Source: Escherichia coli (GTDB taxonomy: Bacteria; Pseudomonadota; Gammaproteobacteria; Enterobacterales; Enterobacteriaceae). From it: DNA of 64,000 nt. The notes under the pieces were generated by a model that was not told the origin of the DNA, did no database searches, and saw only the letters and a list, made by a program, of their open reading frames with translations. This document shows positions 2,018 to 28,402 of this stretch, in pieces. How positions within the stretch are numbered: the first letter of the stretch is position 1; each line of letters starts with the position of its first letter. The translations under genes and the position numbers were made by a program. Location of the stretch: the NCBI RefSeq assembly GCF_048403405.1, contig NZ_CP183129.1; one strand, given 5' to 3'.

Positions 2018-3127
2018 TCACTCTGTTTCCGCTATCCATTCCGGGATTTTTGCCTCAAGCTCAAGCTGCGTGGTAAAGCCGCTGTTATCAATAGTGTGCT
2101 CGGCTTTTGCAATGATCCAGTCCTGATTATCAATCTCGCTTTTAAATCCTGTTACCGTACCATGCATTTCGGGGTAGAGTTCTGCACGTCCACGCGCCAG
2201 CGTGATGGAGAATGATGCGGCTCCGCGTTGTAGTTGCTGCCACTTTGCCGCCGCTGCGCGTCTTGCTGCCTGTTCGTTCTGATAGGTCTTGCGTAACACA
2301 AACACATTGCCTTCCGCGCCTTCCATATAATCACCTTCACGGCTGCTGCTTTTCTCCTTTTGGGGTTTTGGTGGTTTGCGGCGTTTCACGCTGACTTTTT
2401 TCTTTTCCCCGTAATTAAGATCAAGCCAGTAGGCGCGTACCCCCGTATACGCCTCGCGGTCAGCAATACGGAACTGATGGCGATCGCCGCTGCTGCGTGT
2501 AATGGCGAACGAGGGCAACGGCTGGCCCTGTGCGTTCACGCCACCACCTGGCATGATGAATAACAGATTGCCGCTTTTTACCGTGGTGATTGCGCCCAGC
2601 ATTTCCGCCATGCGCGTAAGGAAGGACATGTCGCTTTCTTCGGTCTGGTCGGCGTGGTCGATTTCGATATCCATCAGCATTTCGCTGATTTGTGGTTTCA
2701 GACCATACCGATGAGCGATGGCGGATACCACACGCTCAACGGTCACATCATGCCAGGACACCTCACGTTTAACGTTAAATTCATCCCGAAAATCTGCGCT
2801 TCTGGCTGAAACAGTCAGCCTGTCCGGCGGTCCTTCGTGAGCGATTTCATCAACAATGTAAGTGCCTTTTTCTGTCAGCGGTTCTCCTTTCCAGCCAATG
2901 AGAACCGTCAGGCGCGCGCCCCGTGGCGGTAGCTGCAACTGACCATCCGCATCATCCAGCGTGATGGTGAGCTGGTCCGCCTCAAATCCCCGGTTGTCGG
3001 TCAGTGACAGGCTCATCAGGCGCTCTGCCACGCCTGACAGCGTTTTACCCTCCGCGAGAATATCAAAATCCGGCATTTTCACGGGGTCTGTGCCCTGACT
3101 GAGCAATTGCATGGTGGTGTCGGTCAT
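2018..3127 (-). CDS. D: Tail protein D (late control gene D)
   Basis: ORF track frame 2018..3259; start trimmed to ATG at 3127 (MTDTTMQLLSQGTDPVKMPDFDILAEG...) preceded by a GGGAGGGAA ribosome-binding site; P2 gpD-like length and sequence. Confidence 0.85.
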   Translation of the reverse strand: MTDTTMQLLSQGTDPVKMPDFDILAEGKTLSGVAERLMSLSLTDNRGFEADQLTITLDDADGQLQLPPRGARLTVLIGWKGEPLTEKGTYIVDEIAHEGPPDRLTVSARSADFRDEFNVKREVSWHDVTVERVVSAIAHRYGLKPQISEMLMDIEIDHADQTEESDMSFLTRMAEMLGAITTVKSGNLLFIMPGGGVNAQGQPLPSFAITRSSGDRHQFRIADREAYTGVRAYWLDLNYGEKKKVSVKRRKPPKPQKEKSSSREGDYMEGAEGNVFVLRKTYQNEQAARRAAAAKWQQLQRGAASFSITLARGRAELYPEMHGTVTGFKSEIDNQDWIIAKAEHTIDNSGFTTQLELEAKIPEWIAETE

Positions 3128-3284
3128 CTGTTCCCTCCCTGTGCGGCATGGTCGCATGTGCGTGCGGAGGGGGTTACTGCTTTTTGTTGTCGCCGGGTCG
3201 GGAGAACGGCGCAGGGGTGAGATTACGCGCGTGGTGGGTGATGATTGTTGCCGAATCATTTAACGGATACAAGGGGCTGAAGCT

Positions 3285-4469
3285 ATGAGTGAAACTCGTT
3301 TTCATGGTGCCCGTGTTACGGAAAATACCGACCTGGTAACAGCGATTAACGATGTTGATTCCAGCGTTATCGGTATCGTGGCAACGGCGGATGATGCGGA
3401 CGCGAAGCTGTTCCCGCTGAATAAGCCCACACTGCTGACCCGCGTCAATGACGTGCTGGGAAAATGCGGGACAACGGGGACGCTTTATCGTGCGCTTAAG
3501 GCCATCGCAGACCAGGTGAGCACAAAGGTGATCGTCGTTCGCGTGGCTGAACACAAAGAAGAAGACGGAAAGACGCAGGATCAACTGGTTATCGGTGGTT
3601 CTGAGGATGACGGCAGCTATACGGGGATGTATGCGCTGCTTGTTGCAGAGCAGGATGAAAGCATCGGATACCGTCCGCGTATTCTGGCCGCGCCGGAGCT
3701 GGACACGGAGGCTGTAACAAAATCCCTGTGCGTGATTGCAGGTAAACTGCGCGCGTTTGTGTATGCCTCATGTCACGGCTGTAACACGATGGCTGAGGCG
3801 ATTACCTACCGCCAGAAATTCAACGAACGTGAGGTGATGCTCTTATGGCCGGACTTCATCGCCTACAACCCGAAAAGTGGCAAAAACGAAACGTTCCCCG
3901 CGCCTGCCTATGCGTGCGGCCTTCGTGCGTACATTGACCATGAGCAGGGCTGGCACAAATCGCTGTCCAACGTTCCGGTTAAAAATGTGCTGGGAATGTC
4001 CAGGCATGTGTTCTGGTCGTTGCAGGCCGAAGACAGCGATGCCAACAGCCTCAACAACAAAGAAATCACGACCATTATTCGTCGCAACGGGTTCCGCTTC
4101 TGGGGCAACCGCACACCGGAAACGAACGCCTACATCTTTGAGGTGTATACCCGAACCGCACAGGTGCTGGCTGATTCAATTGCGGAAGCGCAGTTTGAAA
4201 CCATCGACAGTCCACTGACACCTGCGAACGTGAAGGATGTTATCAGCGCCATCAGGGCAAAACTGGATTCGCTGGTTACTGCCGGGAAACTGATTGGTGT
4301 GGAGTGCTGGTATGACGTGGTGGATAACGGCACCACGAATTTACGTCAGGGACGTGTGCGTATTCGCTACAAATATACGCCTGTTCCCCCGCTGGAAGAC
4401 ATGGAGCTTTACCAGACGTTTACTGATGAATTCTTTGGTCCCGCATTTGCGGTGCTGGGAGGTGCCTGA
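3285..4469 (+). CDS. FI: Tail sheath protein FI
   Basis: 394 aa; GIVATADDADAKLFPLNKP...DGFRFWGNRT...YTPVPPLE motifs as in P2 gpFI. Confidence 0.9.
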   Translation: MSETRFHGARVTENTDLVTAINDVDSSVIGIVATADDADAKLFPLNKPTLLTRVNDVLGKCGTTGTLYRALKAIADQVSTKVIVVRVAEHKEEDGKTQDQLVIGGSEDDGSYTGMYALLVAEQDESIGYRPRILAAPELDTEAVTKSLCVIAGKLRAFVYASCHGCNTMAEAITYRQKFNEREVMLLWPDFIAYNPKSGKNETFPAPAYACGLRAYIDHEQGWHKSLSNVPVKNVLGMSRHVFWSLQAEDSDANSLNNKEITTIIRRNGFRFWGNRTPETNAYIFEVYTRTAQVLADSIAEAQFETIDSPLTPANVKDVISAIRAKLDSLVTAGKLIGVECWYDVVDNGTTNLRQGRVRIRYKYTPVPPLEDMELYQTFTDEFFGPAFAVLGGA

Positions 4470-4981
4470 TGGCTGTACCAAAACATCTTCGCTTTTTTAC
4501 GTTGTTTGTGGATGGTGAAAACGAAGTGGGTAAAGTGACATCCGTCACGCCGCCCAAACTGACGCGCAAAACCGACAGCTATCGTGGTGGTGGCATGATG
4601 GGGGCGGTAAGTATTGATCTCGGTCTGGACGACTCCGCGCTTGATGCGAGTTTTGTCATGGGGGGAGCTGTTCGTGCGCTGTTCCTTAAATATGGCGGCA
4701 CGATTGACGGCACGCTGCTGCGTTTTGCGGGTGAATACTACACCGATGCAGAAAGCGATCTGTATGAAATCGAGATGCGCGGGCGTGTGACGGAAATTGA
4801 TATGGGGGAAGCCAAACAGGGCGAAGCCACATCACACACTTACGCTGTCAAAAACACCTACTACAAGCTGAGCGTTAACGATCGCCCGCTGTGGGAAATC
4901 GACCTGTTGAACCACATCTACCGGAAGGACGGCAAGGACATTGTGCCTGACCGTATCCGTTCCGCGCTTGGGCTTGGCTGA
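4469..4981 (+). CDS. FII: Tail tube protein FII
   Basis: 170 aa, directly follows FI; P2 gpFII-like. Confidence 0.9.
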   Translation: MAVPKHLRFFTLFVDGENEVGKVTSVTPPKLTRKTDSYRGGGMMGAVSIDLGLDDSALDASFVMGGAVRALFLKYGGTIDGTLLRFAGEYYTDAESDLYEIEMRGRVTEIDMGEAKQGEATSHTYAVKNTYYKLSVNDRPLWEIDLLNHIYRKDGKDIVPDRIRSALGLG

Positions 4982-5036
4982 TAAGTAATATGCAGGCGGC
5001 GCAGTGCGTCGCCTCTGACTGAAAAGGAGACAACTG

Positions 5037-5411
5037 ATGAAAGACATCGATACTGAAACCCGGAATAACACCGTGGCGGATGATGTGACGGCAGGTGAGG
5101 ATATGGCTGTCGAACGTGGCGTAAAACTGACCCGACCAATTGAGCGTGGTGGCGAAAAAATCACGTATGTGGAGATCACCGGGGCTATTGAGCAGGCTGG
5201 ATCCCTGCGTGGTCTGTCGCTGTCTGATGTGCTGAATCTGAAAGCGGATACCATGTTTACGCTGTTGCCTCGCGTGACCTCGCCACGACTGGATGAAGTG
5301 ATGATTAAAAAAATGTCGTCACGCGATTTTATTCAGTTGTGCGCTGTGGCTGTAAATTTTATGAGCGAGCCAGACTCTGGCGCGAAGAGCGTGCAGGAGA
5401 CGGCAGCGTAA
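5037..5411 (+). CDS. E: Tail assembly chaperone E (zero-frame product)
   Basis: ORF between tube and tape-measure genes, the position of P2 gene E. Confidence 0.75.
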   Translation: MKDIDTETRNNTVADDVTAGEDMAVERGVKLTRPIERGGEKITYVEITGAIEQAGSLRGLSLSDVLNLKADTMFTLLPRVTSPRLDEVMIKKMSSRDFIQLCAVAVNFMSEPDSGAKSVQETAA

Positions 5412-5575
5412 TCACCCTGGTGTGCTTTGAGCACATCGAAGATCTGGTGGCGGATATTGCCGCCATTTTTAACTGGTCGCCCGCCGAAATCTTCATGATG
5501 ACGCCCGGCGAAGTGGTTAGCTGGCGCGAGCGGGCGGCACTTCGCAGCGGGAATGCAGATAATGAAGACTCTTGA
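5037..5575 (+). CDS. E+E' fusion by programmed -1 ribosomal frameshift
   Basis: The -1 frame is open from 5309 to 5575 and overlaps the E frame; an A7 run (5307-5313) in ATT-AAA-AAA-ATG is a plausible slippery site; 3' end overlaps the T start, as in P2 E/E' and lambda G/GT. Confidence 0.55.
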
Positions 5576-8369
5576 TATCCGGGTCGCTTTCAGCGCCGTT
5601 GACAGGCTGACCCGGCCTGCCGAAAACGCCCGCCGCCTGATGGGGCAGTTTGGTGACTCCATCCAGCGAACGCAGGGGGCGATCAAAAATCTCGAGCGTC
5701 AGGCGCGTTCATTTGAGCGCGCCCGTGACGCTGTCAGTAAAGCGGATGCTGGCATCGTGAAAGCACGACGCCAGCTTAACGCCCTTAATCAGTTACAACG
5801 CACGGGTACAGTGCTCAGCGAAAAACAACAAAAGCTGATGCAGCAGTTAAGCACCCGGCTTGAACGCCTGAATGAATCGCGCACACGGGAAATTCAGAAA
5901 ATGCGGGAGCTTGGCGGAGAGCTGAAACGCCACGGCATTTCCCTGACAGGCAGCGATAACACCATCCAGCAGGCCATCAGACGCACCGAACAGTACAACA
6001 ACCAGCTTGAACGCGAACGGCAGGCGCTTGCGCGTGTAACGCGGGCGCGTGAGCGGTATTCGCGCGCGCAGGAAACAGCGGGAAAACTGAAAACAGGTGG
6101 TGCGCTGGCAATTGGTGCGGCAGCGGCGGGCGGCTATGCTGCCGGGCGTTTTTTGCAGCCTGCGATCGGGTTCGGCAAAGAGATGTCCCGCGTTCAGGCA
6201 CTGACGCGAATCGACCAGAACAGCCCGCAGTTTAAGGCGCTGCGTGAGCAGGCGTTAAAACTTGGCTCTGAAACGCAGTTCACCGCAGGCGATGCCGCCA
6301 GTGGACAGGCATTTCTTGCAATGGCTGGCTTCACTCCGCAGGCCATTCAGGCTGCGCTTCCCGGCGTGCTGAGCATGGCAACGGCTGGCGGTATGGATCT
6401 CGGCGAGACGGCAGATATTGGCTCAAATATCCTGACGCAGTTCGGCCTTTCTGCTGACCAGATGGACCGGGTCGGTGACACACTCACCGCAGCGTTTACC
6501 CGTACCAACACTGACCTTCGCGCACTGGGCGAAACCATGAAATATGCAGGTCCGGTGGCGGGTAAGCTGGGAATATCGCTGGAGCAGGCCGCAGCGATGG
6601 CTGGCGTGCTGGCGAATATGGGCATCAGAGGGAGTGATGCCGGGACGGCAATGCGTGCCAGCCTGGCTCGTCTGGCATCACCGCCAAAGGCGGCGGCAGA
6701 AGCTCTGAAAGAGCTGGGCGTGTCCGTCTCGGATGCCGGGGGCAAAATGCGCCCGATGGAGGATGTGCTGGCCGACCTTTATAAAGCCACCCGTAAATAC
6801 GGGGAAGTTGACCGGGTATCGTTCTTTAAGGACATTGCCGGAGAAGAGGCTTTCACATCGTTTATGGCGCTCGTTGATGCAGCGGGTGACGGTTCCTTAC
6901 CCAAACTGAGAAAAGAACTTGAAGGCGCGCGCGGTGAGGCTGAACGCACAGCAAAGGTTATGGCCAACAACCTTGACGGCGATCTGAAATCACTCGGCAG
7001 TGCATGGGAAGGGTTGCGCATCCGCATTGCAGATCTGATTGACGGTCCGCTGCGTTCTGTCACGCAGTGGCTCACGCGGGTGGTCTCAAAAGTGACGGCA
7101 CTGGCGCAGGCCCATCCGGCACTGACGCGCCAGTTACTGATAGCGGGAGGTGCACTGCTGGCGACAACAGCAACGGTTGGTTCGTTGTCTCTGGTTATTG
7201 GGGTGCTTCACGGGAAGCTGGCTACGTTACGTCTCGGTTTTTCTCTCCTGACCGGATCAATGAATGCTGTCAGGGGCCTGCCAGCACTATGGGGAATGGT
7301 GACGGGTTCCGTTTCTTTACTGGGAGGCGCTATCGGGGCGCTGATCAGTCCGGTTGGTCTTATCGTGGCTGCGCTTGCCGGAGCTGCCGTTCTTATCTGG
7401 AAATACTGGGATCCCATCAGGGCATTTTTTGCCGGGGTGTTCAGCGGGATTATGGAAAGGCTGACCCCGTTGCGCGAAACCTTTGAACGGTTTGGTCCTG
7501 TTTTTGACGCAATCGGAAGCGGGATCAGCCAGGTGTTTAACTGGTTTAAATCGCTGCTGTCACCGATGGAGTCCAGCAAGGAAACGCTGGATAAATGTAC
7601 CAGTGCTGGCGAGATATTCGGTAACGTTCTTGGCGGTGCGTTACAGCTTGTTCTGACACCTGCAAAAATGCTACTGGATACGCTGGCGTGGATACTTGAA
7701 AAACTTGGCGTCCTTCCGGATGAAGCGGAAAAGGCGCGCAAGAAAATCGAAGACGCACAGCGTGCGGCCATTCTTCAGGACAAGGTTGCCTTGCTTCAGG
7801 GGGACCTTGCGAAAATCAATCCGCCGAAGCCTGTGGAAAATGGCAATGGCACCGGAGGTGATAAACCCAAAGACAACAAACCGCTCACAGACAGCAATAC
7901 CGGGACGCTACGCAGACTCAGCAAAATTGCTGATAACACAGGTAAGCTGGTTGATGAGACGAAAAAACGCATTGGCCCTGGCGATATTGTCTTTAAGAAC
8001 CTGCCCCGCGCACTTGCTGTTCGTGGGGAGTGGCAGGAGCGGAAGATTGCGCAGGTCAGTAAGCCTGCCCCCGCAATTAATATCACACCCGTAGTCCCGG
8101 CTCCGCTGCCTCCGGCGCTGGTCCCTGTTGTTGCGGCCAGCTCCCGCCCGGTGGCGGAGGCCATACGATCGCCAGTGGCATCAGTTCCTGCAGCTTCCCG
8201 TAATCGGGAGCCTGCTGTCTCCAGATTTGGCGGTGAAATTCATGTTCATCTGCATAACGTTGTTACGCAGAATCCCCGCGAACTGGCGAAACTGGTCGGT
8301 GAAATGGTCAGGGCAGAGATGGAACGGCGCGCCCGTGCCGGACGTGGCAGTTTTTACGATAAAGATTGA
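5553..8369 (+). CDS. T: Tail tape measure protein T
   Basis: 938 aa; coiled-coil-rich N-terminal part, Gly/Ala-rich hydrophobic middle; position after E/E'. Alternative start ATG at 5562. Confidence 0.85.
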   Translation: MQIMKTLDIRVAFSAVDRLTRPAENARRLMGQFGDSIQRTQGAIKNLERQARSFERARDAVSKADAGIVKARRQLNALNQLQRTGTVLSEKQQKLMQQLSTRLERLNESRTREIQKMRELGGELKRHGISLTGSDNTIQQAIRRTEQYNNQLERERQALARVTRARERYSRAQETAGKLKTGGALAIGAAAAGGYAAGRFLQPAIGFGKEMSRVQALTRIDQNSPQFKALREQALKLGSETQFTAGDAASGQAFLAMAGFTPQAIQAALPGVLSMATAGGMDLGETADIGSNILTQFGLSADQMDRVGDTLTAAFTRTNTDLRALGETMKYAGPVAGKLGISLEQAAAMAGVLANMGIRGSDAGTAMRASLARLASPPKAAAEALKELGVSVSDAGGKMRPMEDVLADLYKATRKYGEVDRVSFFKDIAGEEAFTSFMALVDAAGDGSLPKLRKELEGARGEAERTAKVMANNLDGDLKSLGSAWEGLRIRIADLIDGPLRSVTQWLTRVVSKVTALAQAHPALTRQLLIAGGALLATTATVGSLSLVIGVLHGKLATLRLGFSLLTGSMNAVRGLPALWGMVTGSVSLLGGAIGALISPVGLIVAALAGAAVLIWKYWDPIRAFFAGVFSGIMERLTPLRETFERFGPVFDAIGSGISQVFNWFKSLLSPMESSKETLDKCTSAGEIFGNVLGGALQLVLTPAKMLLDTLAWILEKLGVLPDEAEKARKKIEDAQRAAILQDKVALLQGDLAKINPPKPVENGNGTGGDKPKDNKPLTDSNTGTLRRLSKIADNTGKLVDETKKRIGPGDIVFKNLPRALAVRGEWQERKIAQVSKPAPAINITPVVPAPLPPALVPVVAASSRPVAEAIRSPVASVPAASRNREPAVSRFGGEIHVHLHNVVTQNPRELAKLVGEMVRAEMERRARAGRGSFYDKD

Positions 8370-8375
8370 GGAGTC

Positions 8376-8870
8376 ATGGTCATGATGATGATCTACGGCA
8401 TGTTTGTTTTTGAGCTGCGCACACTGCCGCATCAGCAGTTACAGCAAAACAAAAGCTGGCGGCATGTGAAAAATGAACGCGTTAACCGTTCAGCAAGCTG
8501 GCAGTATATAGGTGCAGGTGATGATCGCATTGTGCTTTCCGGCGTGCTTTATCCTGAAATTACAGGTGGCGAAGTGTCGCTTTCGTTGCTGACCACGCAG
8601 GCATATACAGGACGCCCCTGGCCTCTGATTGATGGTGTCGGGCAGATTTACGGCATGTATGTGCTGACTGAAACGAATACGACCCGTTCCGAGTTTGATC
8701 GCTACGGTAAGGCGAAAAAGATAGAATTTTCACTGACCCTTGAACGCTGTGATGAGGATTTGCGGGAGCGCCTGCAATCCTCATCATTCAGCGATATGCT
8801 GTCCGGCTTCAAAGATAAGGTGACATCATCTCTTAACAGCGCGGCCAGTTCAGTTAAAGGGCTGTTCTGA
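8376..8870 (+). CDS. U: Tail protein U
   Basis: 164 aa; MMMIYGMFVFELRT... resembles P2 gpU. Confidence 0.85.
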   Translation: MVMMMIYGMFVFELRTLPHQQLQQNKSWRHVKNERVNRSASWQYIGAGDDRIVLSGVLYPEITGGEVSLSLLTTQAYTGRPWPLIDGVGQIYGMYVLTETNTTRSEFDRYGKAKKIEFSLTLERCDEDLRERLQSSSFSDMLSGFKDKVTSSLNSAASSVKGLF

Positions 8871-8883
8871 TTTAACACAAAAA

Positions 8884-8912
8884 CCGCTAATGGTCAGATT
8901 AGCGGTTATTTT
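8884..8912. terminator. Bidirectional intrinsic terminator between convergent U and invertase genes
   Basis: Hairpin CCGCTAA-tggtcaga-TTAGCGG flanked by T-rich tracts on both strands. Confidence 0.5.
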
Positions 8913-9493
8913 GTTTCCTGACTCTTCTCTATTGTTCCGATTGATTCTCCTGCGGGGTGGTAACGATAAATCGTCGATATACCAATGCCGTAAATTATTG
9001 CCAGTTGTTTTCTGTCGTGCCCGTTTTTGATCAGCCTTGCTATTTGCTCATGCTGTTCTTTTGTCAGCTTCGGTCGACGTCCGCCTGTGCGCCCCCGTGC
9101 GCGTGCTGCCGCCAGTCCGGCCAGTGTACGTTCAACAATTAATTCACGTTCCATTTCAGCCAGGGCACCCATCACGTGGAAGAAAAAACGCCCCATTGGA
9201 GAAGATGTATCTATGCTGTCGGTCAGACTGCGAAAATTAATTCCTCGCTCCCGTAGTTCCCCGACGAGAGAAATCAGATGTTTCATGCTTCGCCCGAGGC
9301 GATCCAGTTTCCAGACAACCAGCGTGTCACCTTTTTGAAGGCGCTTTAAAGCGCGTTTTAATCCCGGTCGGTCTGTCTTTGTCCCGCTTAATTTATCTTC
9401 AAATATTTGTTCACATCCTGCACAAACAAGAGCGTTTCGTTGCAGGTCTGTATTCTGGTCATTTGTTGATACCCTTACATAGCCAATCAGCAC
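8906..9493 (-). CDS. Site-specific DNA invertase, Gin/Pin/Cin/Hin serine recombinase family
   Basis: (V)LIGYVRVSTNDQNTDLQRNALVCAGCEQIFEDKLSGTKTDRPGLKRALKRL... is near-identical in pattern to Mu Gin / e14 Pin; start trimmed to GTG at 9493. Confidence 0.9.
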   Translation of the reverse strand: MLIGYVRVSTNDQNTDLQRNALVCAGCEQIFEDKLSGTKTDRPGLKRALKRLQKGDTLVVWKLDRLGRSMKHLISLVGELRERGINFRSLTDSIDTSSPMGRFFFHVMGALAEMERELIVERTLAGLAAARARGRTGGRRPKLTKEQHEQIARLIKNGHDRKQLAIIYGIGISTIYRYHPAGESIGTIEKSQETK

Positions 9494-9547
9494 GCTGAAT
9501 CTCCCGTCCAAAAGCGCAAATCATGCCATGCAGGCCGGAAACGGCCA

Positions 9548-9580
9548 TTATCTAAAACCTCGGTTTACAGGAAACGGTAA
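9548..9580. other. gix-like inversion crossover site (right)
   Basis: TTATCTAAAACC-TC-GGTTTACAGGAA matches the gix/cix-type 26-bp site; an inverted copy lies at 12614-12646. Confidence 0.8.
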
Positions 9581-10581
9581 ACAAGGCTGGTAACGCCGTC
9601 CAAAAGACAGGCGATATCTTGTCCGGTGGGCTTACTTTTGAAAACGACTCAATCCTTGCCTGGATTCGGAATACTGACTGGGCAAAGATTGGTTTTAAAA
9701 ATGATGCCGACAGCGATACTGATTCATACATGTGGTTTGAAACAGGCGACAACGGCAATGAATATTTCAAATGGAGAAGCAAACAAAGCACCACAACAAA
9801 AGACCTGATGAATCTTAAATGGGATGCTTTGTCTGTTCTTGTTAAAGCCCTTTTCAGCAGTGAAGTAAAAATATCGACAGTCAATGCACTGAGGATATTT
9901 AATTCATCTTTTGGTGCTATTTTTCGCCGTTCTGAAGAATGCCTGCATATCATCCCGACACGAGAGAATGAGGGAGAAAATGGTGATATAGGGCCACTAC
10001 GCCCCTTTACGCTTAATCTCAGAACTGGTCGGATAAGCATGGGGCATGGTCTTGATGTTACAGGGGATATATTTGCAAACCGTTTTGCAATTAACAGTAG
10101 TACCGGCATGTGGATTCATATGCGTGACCAGAATGTTATTTTGGGACGCAATGCGGTATCCACCGATGGTGCACAGGCATTACTTCGTCAGGACCATGCT
10201 GATCGCAAATTTATGATTGGTGGGCTGGGAAATAAGCAATTTGGCATCTACATGATTAATAACTCAAGGACAGCTAATGGCACCGATGGTCAGGCGTACA
10301 TGGATAATAACGGGAACTGGCTTTGCGGTTCGCAAGTTATTCCCGGCAACTATGGCAATTTTGATTCCAGATATGTGAAAGATGTTCGACTTGGTTCACA
10401 GCAATATTATGGAGTGAACAACTGGCAAACATGGAATTTCCAGTGCCCGTCAGGTCATGTATTGTCTGGTATTAATGTTCAGGATACAGGGTCCAACTCT
10501 GCCGATAATATAGCGGGCGTTTATTACAGACCCGTTCAAAAGTATATAAATGGCACCTGGTATAATATAGCGAGCGTTTAA
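9559..10581 (+). CDS. Alternative tail-fiber C-terminal variable cassette (promoterless, silent in this orientation)
   Basis: Frame opens inside the crossover site and encodes LGLQETVN, the same peptide encoded at the other site within H; C-terminus [12 protein letters not shown] parallels the H C-terminus [12 protein letters not shown]. Confidence 0.75.
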
Positions 10582-10582
10582 T

Positions 10583-11110
10583 ATGATGCACTTAAAGAAC
10601 ATAAAAGCGGGTAATGCTAAAACACTGGAACAGTATGAGTTAACAAAGAAGCACGGAGTCATCTGGCTTTACTCTGAGGACGAAAAAAACTGGTATGAGG
10701 AAGTGAAAAACTTTCAGCCAGACACCATAAAGATTGTTTACGATGCAAATAATATTATTGTCGCCATCACTAAAGATGCCTCCACGCTTAACCCTGAAGG
10801 TTTTAGCGTCGTTGAGGTTCCAGATATTACAGCCAACCGCCGCGCTGATGATTCAGGAAAGTGGATGTTTAAGGATGGAGCTGTAGTTAAACGGATTTAT
10901 ACGGCAGACGAACAGCAACAACAGGCCGAATCACAAAAGGCCGCATTGCTTTCCGAAGCTGAATCAGTCATCCAGCCGCTGGAACGCGCTGTCAGGCTGA
11001 ATATGGCAACAGACGAGGAACGCACACGACTGGAAGCATGGGAACGCTACAGTGTTCTGGTCAGCCGTGTGGATACGGCAAATCCTGAATGGCCACAAAA
11101 GCCTGAATAA
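10583..11110 (+). CDS. Alternative tail fiber assembly protein (silent orientation)
   Basis: 175 aa; N-terminus [23 protein letters not shown] nearly identical to the active copy at 11139..11672, C-terminal part divergent. Confidence 0.8.
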
Positions 11111-11115
11111 AAATT

Positions 11116-11137
11116 AAGGCCCGCTATCGGGCCTTGT
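11116..11137. terminator. Bidirectional hairpin between the two convergent tail fiber assembly genes
   Basis: AAGGCCCG-ctat-CGGGCCTT perfect stem at the centre of the invertible segment. Confidence 0.5.
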
Positions 11138-11138
11138 C

Positions 11139-11672
11139 TCATTCAGGTTGTTCGGGAAATGTTACTGGCAGGCTGGAGGTGTCTGTAGATTCGACTTTCT
11201 GCGCATAGAGCATCCACTCGGTTAATTTTGGTTTATTCTCGTCGGAAATGATGCCCAGCCGTAGCTGTGAGTCCCATAGCTGGGTTTTATCCCTGACAAG
11301 TTGCAACAGGCTTTGCTTTTCATTTTCCGCCTGCTGCCTCTGCTCTTCCTCGGTATAAGTTCGCTTTACCACTACGCCATCTTTGAACATCCATTTACCC
11401 GAAATGTCAGCACGGCGATTTGCTGTAATATCAGGTAATTCAACGACGCTTGCGCCTTCCGGATTAATTGCTGAAACATCCTTTTCAATACAAATAATAA
11501 CGCCGTTATGGTCATAGACCATTTTTAAAGTGTCTGGCTGGAAATTCTTTTGTTCCTCATACCAGTTTTTTCCATCCTCTGAATAAAGCCATTTGATGTT
11601 AAATTGTTTCGTTAGCTGGTATTGCTCTTTTGTTTTAGGGTTGCCAGCAGTAATGTTTTTTAAGTGCATCAT
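11139..11672 (-). CDS. G: Tail fiber assembly protein (P2 G-like), active orientation
   Basis: 177 aa, immediately downstream of H. Confidence 0.85.
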
Positions 11673-11674
11673 CG

Positions 11675-13777
11675 TTAAATACTCCCCGCGTTATACCACG
11701 TCCCATTAATGCAATACTGAATTGGCCTTGCCTGAGTTGTATCAATTAATTCATCACGGTTTCCGTTAACTGAACCCGTAACGACATAACCTGACCTGTC
11801 AGACCAGCCGGGACCATTCCATGTCTGAACAGATGACAGACCGCCAAGGCGAATACCTGTAATAAACCTTGAGTTACATTCTGCCTGCGTGTATGCACCA
11901 ACATCTCCCGCTGAGGGTTTGCGGGTCGTGGTGTAAAACTCTGACCAGTCAGCTTCAAAGCCATAACCATCACGCGCTGAACGATAAAAAATGCCGCCGT
12001 TCCTGTAATTCACGCGGAACTGTACAGCAGGGCAACTCCCCGCATTCATATTGAAATGAAGAATTAACGTTGATGCGCCGGTGATTCTGGCGCAATAAAC
12101 TCCGCTGTTCCAGTTCCAGCCAACAGCTTTATCATTTCCGACAGTGCTTCCTGTTTGCCCTAAAGCAAATGCAGGTTGTTGATTTTTCGTGTTGTAGTCT
12201 CGTCGCCAGCCAGGAGCGTAAGCATCACCATGATTGATATAAGTGAATTGAGCGTTAGTAATTCCGCCACCGCTGGACGTGCTCGGCGTGGTAACGCGTA
12301 TGGTCATTGCGCCGCGAGTGCCAATAACTTCCACCACAGCACCTGCAAGACAAATATTTCCGCAACCTGTATCTGTAATGACCTTATTATTTGCATAAGC
12401 CCATGAGCCTTTGCACATCCAGTAAGGATGGTTAAATGCTCCCTGACTCTCCAGCCACGAAATAAATTGCGCGGTTGTCCAGACCTGACTATCGCCACCA
12501 ATATTCAGCCATGCGCTATATGCGCGGCAGGCACCAATATTTTTGGTGAAGGTATCTTTTCCTGGAATATCTGCGCCGTTCTGGTTTTTCTGTAATGCGC
12601 CAGAAGCCTGATTTACCGTTTCCTGTAAACCGAGGTATTCGATAACGGCAGCAACGGTCGATTTCGCAAGAATATCCCGCCCGACTTTTGTCAGGGTTGC
12701 CAGGCTGGCGACATCATTCCCCGTAAAATACGGAAACCTGTCTGCCGCAGTAGCAAGCCCGGCCAGCGCCGTCAGGGTGGCATCTTTCGGTTGCTTACCC
12801 GCAAGCGCTTTAGTCATGGTGGTCGCAAAATTCGGGTCGTTTCCCAGCGCCGCCGCTAACTCGTTCAACGTATTCAGTGCGTCAGGCGACGAGTCTACAA
12901 GTGCGGCAATCGCGGCCATCACATAAGCCGTGCTTGCGATCTGAGTATTATTAGTCCCTTTTGGCGCAGTTGGCGTTGTTGGCGTTCCGGTCAGTGCAGG
13001 ACTATTTAAGGGCGCTTTCTTGTTCGTTTCATCCATTACCGCCTTAACCGCTTTTGGCGTCGCAGCCAGCGTTTCAGATGTGCTGTTGGTGGCGCTACTG
13101 AGCTGAACTATCCCTTTTCGCGCAGTGGTAGCGTCCTGTGCGGTGTATTTGCCATTAGCCAGGTCATATGCCGCCTTAACAGCCTTTGGCGTTGCCGCAA
13201 GCGTTTCAGACGTGCTGTTAGTGGCGCTGCTAAGTTGAACAAAGCCTTTTGCGGTCAGCGAGGCGTCCGGGTGACGTCGTGAGTGTTCATGCTCTTTCAG
13301 TTTGTCATCCACGTAATCCACTGTGGCCATCACCATGGTGTTATCCACGGTAAGCGCCACGGTGGCAGTGCTGGATACGGTCAGAATGGTGCGAAATGTT
13401 TGTGCACGTCCTGACCCTTCGGCAACGGCTGGCTTGTAACTTTCGGCAGTATTGCCTACTGCGATTAAATCGCCGTGCTCATCAAACACACCAATTTCCC
13501 GGATCCAGAATCCGCCCGTTTCTGGAGGAATAACCAGCTCCGCAATAATGCGGTTCTGATGTGTTGCGTCCAGTATGACGCGATTAACAGTGTGTCGCCA
13601 CACCTCATGCACCAGACGGGTCTGCTTACTGTCTGGTGTGGGCAACGTGCCGCCACCGTCGCCCACGGCCATATGAGTCAGGCGGACAGGCTTACCATCT
13701 GGCGCGGCTGCCTGAGCTAATTTTTTTGCACCCGTATCGGTGATAACGGTTTTAAATTTTCGTGTTGTGGTACTCAT
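11675..13777 (-). CDS. H: Tail fiber protein H (constant N-terminal part 13777-12634, variable C-terminal part inside the invertible segment)
   Basis: 700 aa; conserved P2 H-like N-terminus, internal tandem repeat [22 protein letters not shown] x2; crossover site within the coding sequence. Confidence 0.9.
12614..12646. other. gix-like inversion crossover site (left), inside H
   Basis: TTACCGTTTCCTGTAAACCGAGGTATTCGATAA is the reverse complement of the 9548-9580 site, with 31 of 33 positions matching. Confidence 0.8.
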
Positions 13778-27097: not shown

Positions 27098-27412
27098 TTA
27101 TTCTGGGAATAAGGTCTGAATATTCTTTTTTATTCTATAAAAATTGCATTCAACTCCGCTAGGCTGATTATCCTGGTATGTTTCCTTGATGCTAACGGTA
27201 TTGAAGGGGAGGTTGTCCTCTGGCCATTCGGCCATCCAGTAGGCAAATGCTGGGTTGCGCTTTATGAGCGCTAGCCCAGCCAGAAAGGCCGCGCGTTGCG
27301 CGCGGCTGCGTTCGGAGGCTGGTAGGCTATCGAGGTAATTGCACGCCTCCTGTTCACTCTTGACGGCGGCGGGCTTCAGATAGAAACTTATCCGTCTGGT
27401 TGGTGTCGTCAT
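27098..27412 (-). CDS. ParR/StbB-like partition adaptor
   Basis: Start trimmed to MTTPTRRISFYLKP...; YLDSLPASERSRAQRAAFLAGLAL resembles the R1 ParR motif as remembered; lies directly downstream of the ParM-like gene. Confidence 0.65.
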   Translation of the reverse strand: MTTPTRRISFYLKPAAVKSEQEACNYLDSLPASERSRAQRAAFLAGLALIKRNPAFAYWMAEWPEDNLPFNTVSIKETYQDNQPSGVECNFYRIKKNIQTLFPE

Positions 27413-27416
27413 TGGT

Positions 27417-28376
27417 TTACTCCTTGTCCATTGCGTACAGCCCATTAACCAGAGCAAACTGTGGCACCCCGTCCGCGATGAAAGTCGCATTAACTCCGCA
27501 GACTTCGCGGATAGCGGGTGCCACAATCTCCGCCCCTCCACCGACAACCATCACCCGCCCGTAACCCGAAAAAACCGCCAGCGCGCGGATCACGCGTTGT
27601 TTCAGTGTTTCTTCCTTTTCACGAATAACCGCCATCAGGCTGGCGTAATGCGCGTCATTGTGGATGTGCTGGCGCAGCCAGGCTTCATCATGGCGATGTT
27701 CGATAATGGTATTGGCGATGTGGTGACTGGTGCGCATACCGTTAGTGGCCATCACCGACAGTACGGCATCGGCCATCAGGGAAACGCCTACGTGTGGATC
27801 GCAAAACACCTGGCTGATACCTGCCAGTTGCCCTTGAACCTTTGCCACATCCAGCGTGGTTCCGCCTAAATCCACAATCAGCAGGGATTCAAACGGACTC
27901 ATGTCAGCCAGTGCTTTAAAGCCAGCCGGAATGGATTCAGGCATAACCCGCACGTTACGGATAGTGAATGCTTCGCCGTTCTGGTACTCCACCGAGCGCA
28001 TAACGTTCGCTTTTTTGCGGTTGATGTTGGCCATGTCCGGCTGTGCGTTTGTCTCGAAATACTCGCTCAGTGGCAGGGTGACAACCACATCCACCTCTTG
28101 TGGCGTGATGCCTGATTTGACCAGCGCGTGATGAATGGCGATTACATTCACATCGCTGTACTGGTATTGCGTGTCGGTCGTCTGGACAAAGCGATCGCTG
28201 ACCGGATCAAAACCATAGCGCACGCCATCAAGCATGTAGTTCGCGGGCTGCATGCCACCGAACGGCGCAGACCATTCCGACTTGAAGCTGTTCGGGCTGA
28301 TGGCGTTGCGGCGTTCGCCATTCTCAGTCCATGCCAGCTTGATGTTGGTGGAGCCGTCGTCGATACAAATTTTCAT
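27417..28376 (-). CDS. ParM/StbA-like actin-type partition ATPase
   Basis: 319 aa; IDDGSTNIKL, ISPNSF, QYSDVNV..HHAL, RKKAN, PESIPAG, LIVDLGGTTLD, GVSL, VVGGGAE and LVNG motifs as in plasmid R1 ParM (from memory). Confidence 0.8.
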   Translation of the reverse strand: MKICIDDGSTNIKLAWTENGERRNAISPNSFKSEWSAPFGGMQPANYMLDGVRYGFDPVSDRFVQTTDTQYQYSDVNVIAIHHALVKSGITPQEVDVVVTLPLSEYFETNAQPDMANINRKKANVMRSVEYQNGEAFTIRNVRVMPESIPAGFKALADMSPFESLLIVDLGGTTLDVAKVQGQLAGISQVFCDPHVGVSLMADAVLSVMATNGMRTSHHIANTIIEHRHDEAWLRQHIHNDAHYASLMAVIREKEETLKQRVIRALAVFSGYGRVMVVGGGAEIVAPAIREVCGVNATFIADGVPQFALVNGLYAMDKE

Positions 28377-28402
28377 GTCGATTTTCCTTATGTTGGTTAA
28401 TT

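Follow-up and report, generated by a model that had tools for sequence, protein, structure and literature searches.

The Gin/gix tail-fibre switch is a textbook system that is already annotated in many genomes. In phage Mu, and likewise in D108 and SfMu, the constant part of the fibre gene is followed by a gix site, a tip with its chaperone gene, an inverted chaperone and tip, a second gix site and gin. The C segment of P1 and P7 with its invertase Cin follows the same logic, with an enhancer inside the recombinase gene. Pin of e14, Hin of Salmonella, Min of p15B and the P2-like segments of EPEC E2348/69 belong to the same Fis-dependent serine-invertase family; Hin switches a promoter rather than a coding-sequence fusion. 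The P2-like prophages of EPEC were found experimentally to flip, as demonstrated by sequencing and PCR, and one of them is a two-state switch like the one described here (PMC4272514).

The locus analysed here lies within a 64,000-nucleotide stretch of Escherichia coli DNA, which is referred to as the window. It is very probably active as a two-state switch of host range, of the same type as the Mu G segment, and belongs to a P88-like prophage that looks intact. A switch of this kind is not new in principle. A first-pass annotation of the same DNA had already proposed it, and that interpretation is supported, with errors that were limited to details.

The gix sites

The invertible segment and its two bounding sites are as follows:
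9561..12632, no strand: invertible segment, homologue of Mu G and P1/P7 C, 3,072 bp
9548..9573, plus strand: gix site adjoining gin and heading the silent cassette, TTATCTAAAACCTCGGTTTACAGGAA, with its centre TC at 9560-9561
12620..12645, minus strand: gix site within the tail fibre gene H, TTATCGAATACCTCGGTTTACAGGAA, with its centre at 12632-12633

The segment had been described as bounded by inverted gix-like sites with 24 of 24 core positions identical, and this description holds, the shared 24-nt core lying at 9558-9581 and 12612-12635. The two 26-bp sites are inverted relative to each other, and each consists of imperfect 12-bp half-sites around a 2-bp core, which is TC in both. A wider inverted repeat of 62 nt with 79% identity surrounds them. 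The gin-proximal site shows no mismatch to the gix pattern, is one base away from that of Mu and is identical to the P88 and SfMu sites. The H-internal site shows one mismatch to the pattern; its outer half-site is diverged (AATACC versus AAAACC), with two positions that differ from Mu's, and the whole site is identical to that of P88 and of the strain pair GF8/GF161 considered below. By their sequence, both are canonical gix sites. Both encode the peptide LGLQETVN in the fibre frame, as had been noted. The left-hand site had been assigned to H; it is the right-hand site (12620-12645) that lies within H, and the left-hand one heads the silent cassette.

No other gix match occurs in the window; none is expected by chance, and none arose in 100 shuffles. 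A third site, which would turn the locus into a shufflon like those of p15B and of one EPEC P2-like prophage, was sought as a full site with at most three mismatches and by a palindromic consensus scan, and was rejected, as only two sites are present.

Tail fibre and assembly genes

The reading frames and the hairpin associated with the segment are listed below:
11675..13777, minus strand: tail fibre gene H in its present form, 700 aa
12634..13777, minus strand: constant part of H, 87% identical to P88 H
11675..12633, minus strand: variable S'-type tip of H, 98% identical to Mu S'
11139..11672, minus strand: current tail fibre assembly gene (U'-type), 177 aa
9559..10581, plus strand: silent, promoterless alternative fibre tip (S-type), an open frame
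10583..11110, plus strand: silent tail fibre assembly gene (U-type), 175 aa
11116..11135, no strand: hairpin separating the two convergent assembly genes, with terminator character on the minus strand

The segment shares 89-95% nucleotide identity with the invertible segments of Mu, D108, P1, P7, D6 and SfMu. It shows the Mu G and P1 C layout, in which a constant 5' part lies outside and two opposed 3' parts lie inside with their assembly genes. The open reading frames bear out the earlier description of H as fused to one variable C-terminus and followed by an assembly gene, with a silent, promoterless cassette and a second assembly gene on the opposite strand. A stop codon stands immediately upstream of the silent cassette (open from 9559 to 10581), and the reading frames of both the cassette and the silent chaperone remain open.

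H as a whole is 56% identical to P2 H. Its present tip matches PDB 8ju3 (E 2e-217), and the silent tip matches 5yvq, the structure of Mu S (E 1e-147). A comparison of the tips with known receptor-binding domains had been suggested, and each corresponds to one of the Mu tips with a solved structure, S or S'. The silent tip is 95% identical to SfMu gp52, 84% to the C-terminus of P88 H and 69% to Mu S. The U'-type assembly gene is 97% identical to Mu U' and matches PDB 5yvq_B, which is Mu U (E 4e-64); the silent U-type gene is 94% identical to SfMu gp51, 91% to Mu U and 89% to P2 G. The N-termini of the two assembly genes had been called nearly identical, but they are only similar, the genes being 58% identical overall and their 5' ends 74% identical at the nucleotide level. 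For fibre, chaperones and invertase, no specific NCBIfam family scored above the curated cut-offs; Pfam and PDB were informative.

An in-silico flip of the segment gave an in-frame H' of 721 aa, and both fusions stay in frame. Either orientation yields a complete in-frame fibre gene followed by its own assembly gene (177 or 175 aa), which agrees with the earlier proposal that inversion swaps the tips as in Mu G and P1 C. From the 98% identity of one tip to Mu S' and the 69% identity of the other to Mu S, we infer that the two forms would have different hosts; the host ranges of the Mu forms are summarised in PMC4406740. A counterpoint comes from SfMu, whose tips are both closely related to these: its induced and infection-grown lysates did not differ in host range (PMC4406740).

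The hairpin between the convergent assembly genes had been given as 11116-11137 and as bidirectional. It is present at that place and spans 11116-11135, with a perfect 8-bp stem (six GC pairs) and a 4-nt loop. An outer stem is formed on both strands by the two gene ends, CCTGAAT(A/G)A, and the folding energies range from -25 to -28 kcal/mol (z -6.4 and -7.2). The T-run that follows the hairpin, AATTTTTATT, occurs on the minus strand only, and the reading as a symmetric bidirectional terminator was rejected on this ground.

The Gin invertase and its putative enhancer

Next to the segment lie the recombinase gene and a candidate regulatory element:
8906..9493, minus strand: gin-type DNA invertase gene, 195 aa with a GTG start, identified by its open reading frame and by Pfam and PDB matches
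9404..9475, minus strand: putative Fis-dependent recombinational enhancer (sis) in the 5' part of gin, placed by homology only

The Gin-family assignment made for this frame at first pass was confirmed by Pfam and by matches to the Mu Gin structures. A Resolvase domain covers residues 3-135 (E 1.9e-50) and an HTH_7 domain residues 138-181, and the best PDB match is Mu Gin (4m6f, 3uj3; E ~1e-101). The catalytic Ser9 is retained within the motif VRVSTNDQ. The protein therefore has the features of the Gin/Hin/Cin/Pin serine invertases, namely a catalytic domain, a serine near position 9-10 and a C-terminal helix-turn-helix. Its GTG start is the one used in Mu gin. A TTG-start version of the frame is longer and reaches 9511.

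The invertase is 98.5% identical to that of P88, 85.6% to Mu Gin and 73% to Cin. Across residues 1-103 there is only one mismatch to Mu Gin, while the C-terminal half is ~66% identical (residues 104-182, counted from the alignment). The catalytic domain is thus nearly identical to Mu's and the DNA-binding domain is divergent, making this a mosaic Gin. Its domain content and these identities make the protein orthologous to Gin.

In this invertase family the enhancer acts in cis and carries two Fis sites. Over its first ~215 nt, gin departs from the Mu gene at 2-3 positions, and the P1 enhancer is annotated at nt 19-90 of cin. The 5' coding DNA of gin is a candidate site of the Fis enhancer, at a place that matches Mu and P1. 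In a simple promoter scan, no sigma-70 match was found upstream of gin; we assume that the gene is expressed, given the near-identity of its upstream region to that of Mu.

The result of the promoter scan, together with the gix half-site that departs from Mu's, would suit a locus that descends from a Mu-type switch and no longer inverts here, owing to an unexpressed gin, a weakened H-internal gix or an impaired enhancer. In that case the fibres of the prophage would all be of the S' type. A precedent may be SfMu, which has a mutated site and may not invert (PMC4406740). Against such a relic, the gin frame is intact, Mu has almost the same sequence in the upstream and enhancer regions, and the silent cassette and chaperone are still open. 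The orientations found in public genomes, presented below, also argue against it, and we regard loss of inversion at this locus as very unlikely.

Inversion in E. coli genomes

Among complete E. coli genomes, 64 carried the segment in the orientation of the window and 59 in the flipped orientation, a ratio of approximately 1:1. Even among near-clonal strains both orientations are found, with the flip as the sole difference. Once the segment was flipped at the gix centres, GF8 and GF161 aligned over 11,001 bp without a mismatch, and 2020N21-110-15 aligned in the same way with its parent 2020N21-110 over 11,151 bp. In both pairs the crossover was confined to the 24-nt shared core, in an interval that always contained the gix centre.

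The window's Gin is amino-acid identical to WP_000905057.1 and to the protein of the 2020N21-110 and 2020N21-110-15 pair, and both of the window's gix sites are identical to those of GF8 and GF161. These identities argue against the relic reading. The diverged half-site of the H-internal gix could lower the inversion rate, yet strains with the same site differ by the flip. Compared at sequence level, near-identical elements show natural flipping at exactly these gix sites, and by extension from them the switch in the window's own genome is almost certainly active.

Orientation differences might also arise from RecA-dependent recombination between the repeats or from assembly error, since inverted repeats can in principle recombine and assemblers can mis-orient a segment flanked by repeats. 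The perfect repeat is only 24 nt (within the 62-nt repeat of 79% identity), far below the length at which RecA is efficient. It is also far shorter than sequencing reads, and mis-assembly is therefore unlikely in complete genomes. Moreover, the constant position of the gix centre inside the crossover interval, the presence of a dedicated invertase with a putative enhancer and the PCR confirmation of flipping in P2-like prophages (PMC4272514) all point to Gin. The probability of an origin other than Gin is, in our judgement, extremely small.

The host prophage

The element is inserted between flk and pdxB. Its gene set, gene order and identities to P2 and P88 agree with the earlier assignment to a P2-like prophage, and it is apparently an intact P88-like member of the P2 family (Xuanwuvirus, Peduoviridae). 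The P2 gene set was read from the annotation of a 99.6% identical region in strain UID2404240038. It forms one integrated block that contains Q P O N M L X, lysis genes, R S V W J I H G, FI FII E T U D, ogr, int, cox and A. Head, packaging, lysis, integrase and replication genes are all present, and gene D is unbroken. The proteins I, H, FI, FII, T, U, D and ogr share 33-62% identity with those of P2.

The gene order is that of P88; relative to P2, the FI-U block is inverted. Gin was rejected as the cause of this fixed inversion, and neither a gix-like sequence nor an inverted repeat of at least 8 nt was found at the two boundaries of the block.

The element is widespread in E. coli: 475 genomes matched 80% or more of the window's first 25 kb. 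This wide distribution would fit a switch that also, or mainly, serves the host cell, through a fibre-derived block to phage adsorption or a tailocin-like weapon with two targets. A precedent exists in cryptic prophages of E. coli K-12, where PinQ-driven inversion of the e14 P segment is reported to give, in one orientation, a fibre-derived product that prevents other phages from adsorbing (PMC12529663). The prophage described here looks complete, unlike e14; H is part of a late operon, which is expected to be off in lysogens, and the sequence gives no pointer to fibre expression from the prophage state. We consider a benefit to the host cell extremely unlikely as the role of this locus.

Proposed mechanism of the switch

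The data are best read as a phage host-range switch, for which the following course is proposed. A lysogen would produce a low level of Gin, whose dimers would bind the two inverted gix sites and form a synaptic complex with host Fis bound to the enhancer inside the 5' end of gin. Ser9 would cleave the central 2-bp core of each site; after a 180-degree rotation of one subunit pair the DNA would be religated, and the 3,072-bp segment would then lie the other way round. Because the first 381 codons of H, together with its start codon and promoter, are outside the segment, inversion would exchange only the 3' end of H. The last 319 codons of H, which specify the Mu S'-type tip, would be replaced by 340 others specifying the S-type tip, and the matching assembly chaperone gene would be brought directly behind H. 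The unused tip and chaperone are promoterless and point in the opposite direction. A population of induced lysogens would consequently release two kinds of virion, predicted to use different lipopolysaccharide receptors. The dependence on Fis and the enhancer, the chemistry of strand exchange and the receptor specificities are extrapolated from the literature on Mu, P1 and Hin. There is also a slim chance that orientation-dependent products alter the sensitivity of the lysogen to other phages, or that the mosaic Gin, working at asymmetric gix sites, biases or regulates the switch where a plain 1:1 alternation would be expected.

These results have consequences for annotation, since the locus exists in two states. 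The frame called on the silent strand, which begins at an internal TTG at 9619 and is labelled 'tail fiber protein' or 'hypothetical protein', represents the other 3' end of H and should not be counted as a gene of its own. In comparative genomics, isolates that are identical elsewhere will seem to differ by a 3-kb structural change where the flip has occurred, and it would be wrong to interpret this as an assembly error or as a rearrangement of any significance. For phage biology and therapy, particles induced from such a lysogen should, by analogy, mix two receptor specificities.

Comparison with known systems

The closest described relatives of the whole element are P88 and the prophage records 'Escherichia phage 520873' and '503458', which belong to the same genus and have the same gene order, in which the invertase gene is flanked by the invertible segment on one side and by the inverted FI-U tail operon on the other. 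P88 differs in that it was deposited in the opposite orientation, with an S-type tip fused, and its H has one extra 44-aa repeat. In the text of the P88 paper (PMC5285337), the words 'inversion' and 'invert' were not found.

The switch itself is closest to that of Mu, whose G segment, like those of D108 and SfMu, has ~91-93% DNA identity to the segment in the window. Mu differs in being a transposable phage, whereas the host element here is a P2-family temperate phage. Likewise, the constant part of Mu S has short matching stretches only, and the constant part in the window resembles P2 H. The silent tip is closer to the SfMu and P88 versions than to Mu S. P1 and P7 have a homologous S' tip (86%) and U' chaperone (96%), in a C segment that is longer (4.2 kb). 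The second EPEC locus and p15B have at least three sites and are shufflon-like, whereas the locus in the window has two sites only.

Organisation of the tail-fibre locus

The ORF listing placed P2-type baseplate genes V, W, J and I on the minus strand, read leftward, ahead of the tail-fibre gene H. The features of the locus are as follows.

8906..9493, minus strand: serine invertase gene (gin), 195 aa, GTG start, left of the silent cassette
9548-9573, plus strand: recombination site (gix), from the 26-bp pattern search
9559..10581, plus strand: silent fibre cassette, an open frame upstream of the 175-aa assembly gene
10583..11110, plus strand: silent assembly gene, 175 aa, facing the minus-strand genes
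11139..11672, minus strand: assembly gene of the present state, 177 aa (ORF listing)
11675..13777, minus strand: tail-fibre gene H, 700 aa (ORF listing)
12620-12645, minus strand: gix site inside H, from the 26-bp pattern search

In the silent cassette the first usable start was a TTG within the frame, at 9619; immediately 5' of the frame lay a stop codon. In the near-identical RefSeq loci, the cassette (9619-10581) is labelled from this internal codon as a gene of its own, named "hypothetical protein" or "phage tail fiber protein", and the half receiving the label varies with the orientation assembled. This separate-gene label is an artefact that arises from the invertible design.

The two assembly genes, previously described as nearly identical at the N-terminus, were only 58% identical overall and 74% in DNA across the first 65 nt. 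The perfect bidirectional hairpin reported between them at 11116-11137 was recovered as a hairpin at 11116-11135, but it was not bidirectional, as a T-run was present on the minus strand only. A second hairpin, with a 10-bp stem and T-runs on both strands, was observed at 8882-8907 between the convergent ends of the tail gene U and gin; its form suggests a bidirectional terminator that would insulate gin from the tail operon.

Recombination sites and invertase

The repeat finder identified a 62-nt inverted repeat (79%; 9544-9605 and 12588-12649) containing 24 identical nucleotides (9558-9581 and 12612-12635), and each arm held a 26-bp site, TTATC-N-AA(A/T)ACC TC GGTTTACAGGAA. Scanning all 64 kb of the window at ≤3 mismatches detected no gix sites beyond those at 9548-9573 and 12620-12645, and the pattern had 0 matches in the 100 shuffles used as a control. 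The coordinates in the first-pass annotation and its count of 24 identical positions out of 24 were therefore right; however, it is the right-hand site that lies in H and not, as it had stated, the left.

Pfam assigned a Resolvase catalytic domain and an HTH_7 resolvase domain to the invertase, and the best solved-structure matches were Mu Gin 4m6f and 3uj3 (E about 1e-101). Its protein identity was 98.5% with the invertase of P88, 85.6% with Gin of both Mu and SfMu, and 73.5% with Cin of P1, and the nucleophilic Ser9 was kept. The comparison with Mu Gin revealed a mosaic, with a single difference in residues 1-103 followed by a divergent stretch at 104-182 (about 66% identity) that includes the DNA-binding HTH. 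The gix sites were almost the same as those of Mu despite this divergence. In an alignment with Mu, SfMu, P88 and P1 that spanned the gix site and the initial ~215 nt of gin, the window's DNA was nearly base-for-base equal to Mu, the GTG start included. In the P1 record, nt 19-90 of cin are annotated as the inversion enhancer; this stretch is equivalent by position to 9404-9475 of the window, where we infer a putative conserved Fis-dependent enhancer.

The two states of the fibre

In-silico inversion of the 3,072-bp segment 9561..12632, between the two central dinucleotides, gave an in-frame 721-aa fibre (H'), directly followed by the 175-aa assembly gene. The two tips were barely related except at the shared LGLQETVN junction and in their final ~70 residues, which were 36% identical.

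Matches of the fibre tips and assembly genes in the two states
Fibre tip, present state: 98% Mu S'; 95% SfMu gp49; PDB 8ju3, E 2e-217
Assembly gene, present state: 97% Mu U'
Fibre tip, silent state: 95% SfMu gp52; 84% P88 H C-terminus; 69% Mu S; PDB 5yvq, E 1e-147
Assembly gene, silent state: 94% SfMu gp51; 89% P2 G

Given these matches to the Mu tips (S and S') and assembly genes (U and U'), the window's state is, by sequence likeness, the equivalent of Mu G(-).

The constant part of H also contained an 80-nt direct repeat (13039-13118 and 13171-13250; 84%) with a spacing of 132 nt (44 aa), encoding a protein motif whose copy number differs between relatives; strain 2020N21-110-15 has an H with 132 nt more, and P88 a constant part with 44 aa more.

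Evidence for inversion

The 5-kb region around the segment was compared with 5,426 complete E. coli genomes, counting matches with at least 80% in one collinear piece. The window's orientation was found in 64 genomes and the flipped-segment query in 59, with several strain sets present in both lists. GF8 and GF161 (chicken meat, Switzerland) showed 2,214 differences over 11,001 bp as deposited and 0 once flipped between the gix centres. Similarly, the urine isolate 2020N21-110 and 2020N21-110-15, whose record gives host and source as "not applicable", matched at every position of 11,151 bp once flipped, and a polymorphism in the outer half-site placed the crossover within the shared core of 24 nt, which holds the gix centre. 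RecA recombination or mis-assembly as the origin of these orientation differences is unlikely, as the perfect repeat is just 24 nt and the crossover is always at the gix core.

The window has exactly the Gin amino-acid sequence of the 2020N21-110 pair and exactly the two gix sites of the GF8/GF161 pair, which provides strong, if indirect, sequence evidence that this element flips. A frozen relic that no longer inverts is likewise unlikely, since all parts are intact and identical to those of elements differing by the flip. The invertase and invertible tail-fibre segment noted earlier were thus confirmed, and their reading as a tail-fibre inversion switch is supported by the in-frame H' and the strain pairs.

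E. coli MSI001 (NZ_CP076645.1) carried two copies of the 5-kb region (1573064-1578064 and 1261902-1266902; 98.4% each), one per orientation; a single cell line would therefore hold two such prophages in opposite states.

Prophage context

Over its first 25 kb, the window had 99.6% identity with the closest public genome, that of E. coli strain UID2404240038, whose annotation places the locus in a ~35 kb prophage between flk/tagO and pdxB. The annotation lists, for this prophage, hok, ogr, D, FI, FII, E, E', T, U, gin, the segment, H, I, J, W, V, S, R, lysis genes, X, L, M, N, O, P and Q, then ParM-type partition genes, the gene A for replication, cox, a repressor and int. The description as a P2-like prophage was correct, given this P2 gene set, protein identities to P2 of 33% to 62%, the nearest named phages (P88 and two prophage records classed Xuanwuvirus, Peduoviridae) and an unbroken 413-aa D (2018..3259, minus strand). 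A host-benefit role such as that of PinQ/e14 (PMC12529663) is improbable and is not suggested by the sequence, as the prophage is complete and H lies within a late operon.

The corresponding D in UID2404240038 (13219-14072 of the fetched region, equal to window 2018-3259) is annotated as a 266-aa shortened protein plus a partial fragment, and the window's copy looks more intact. Relative to P2, where a single strand carries H, G, FI...U, D and ogr, the block 3285-8870 (FI, FII, E, E', T, U; plus strand) was inverted between the minus-strand D and gin/H, as also seen in P88 and related prophages; D is consequently separated from the F operon, and FI diverges from it across a short intergenic region. 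The boundaries of this block showed neither a gix-like site nor an inverted repeat. The same annotation places a Hok/Gef-type toxin gene (hok/gef, about 1385-1525) at one prophage end, and ParM with a partition protein (about 27100-28400) beside the replication gene, a pair of plasmid-like maintenance functions within an integrated prophage.

Comparison with known systems

The segment DNA was about 91-93% identical to the Mu G, P1 and P7 C, and SfMu G segments, and the architecture exactly matched that of Mu. PMC4406740 summarises the Mu host-range switch and the hosts listed for G(+) and G(-). Using sequencing and PCR, Goldberg et al. (2014; PMC4272514) showed constant flipping, in culture, of invertible loci in two P2-like EPEC E2348/69 prophages, one locus being a simple two-state switch. 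P88 has the same layout and sites as the window, and inversion is not discussed in the P88 paper. Near-identical copies are already annotated in RefSeq. Given the Mu, EPEC and P88 precedents, the finding is ordinary: the kind of system, its mechanism and its occurrence in this phage lineage are all known already.
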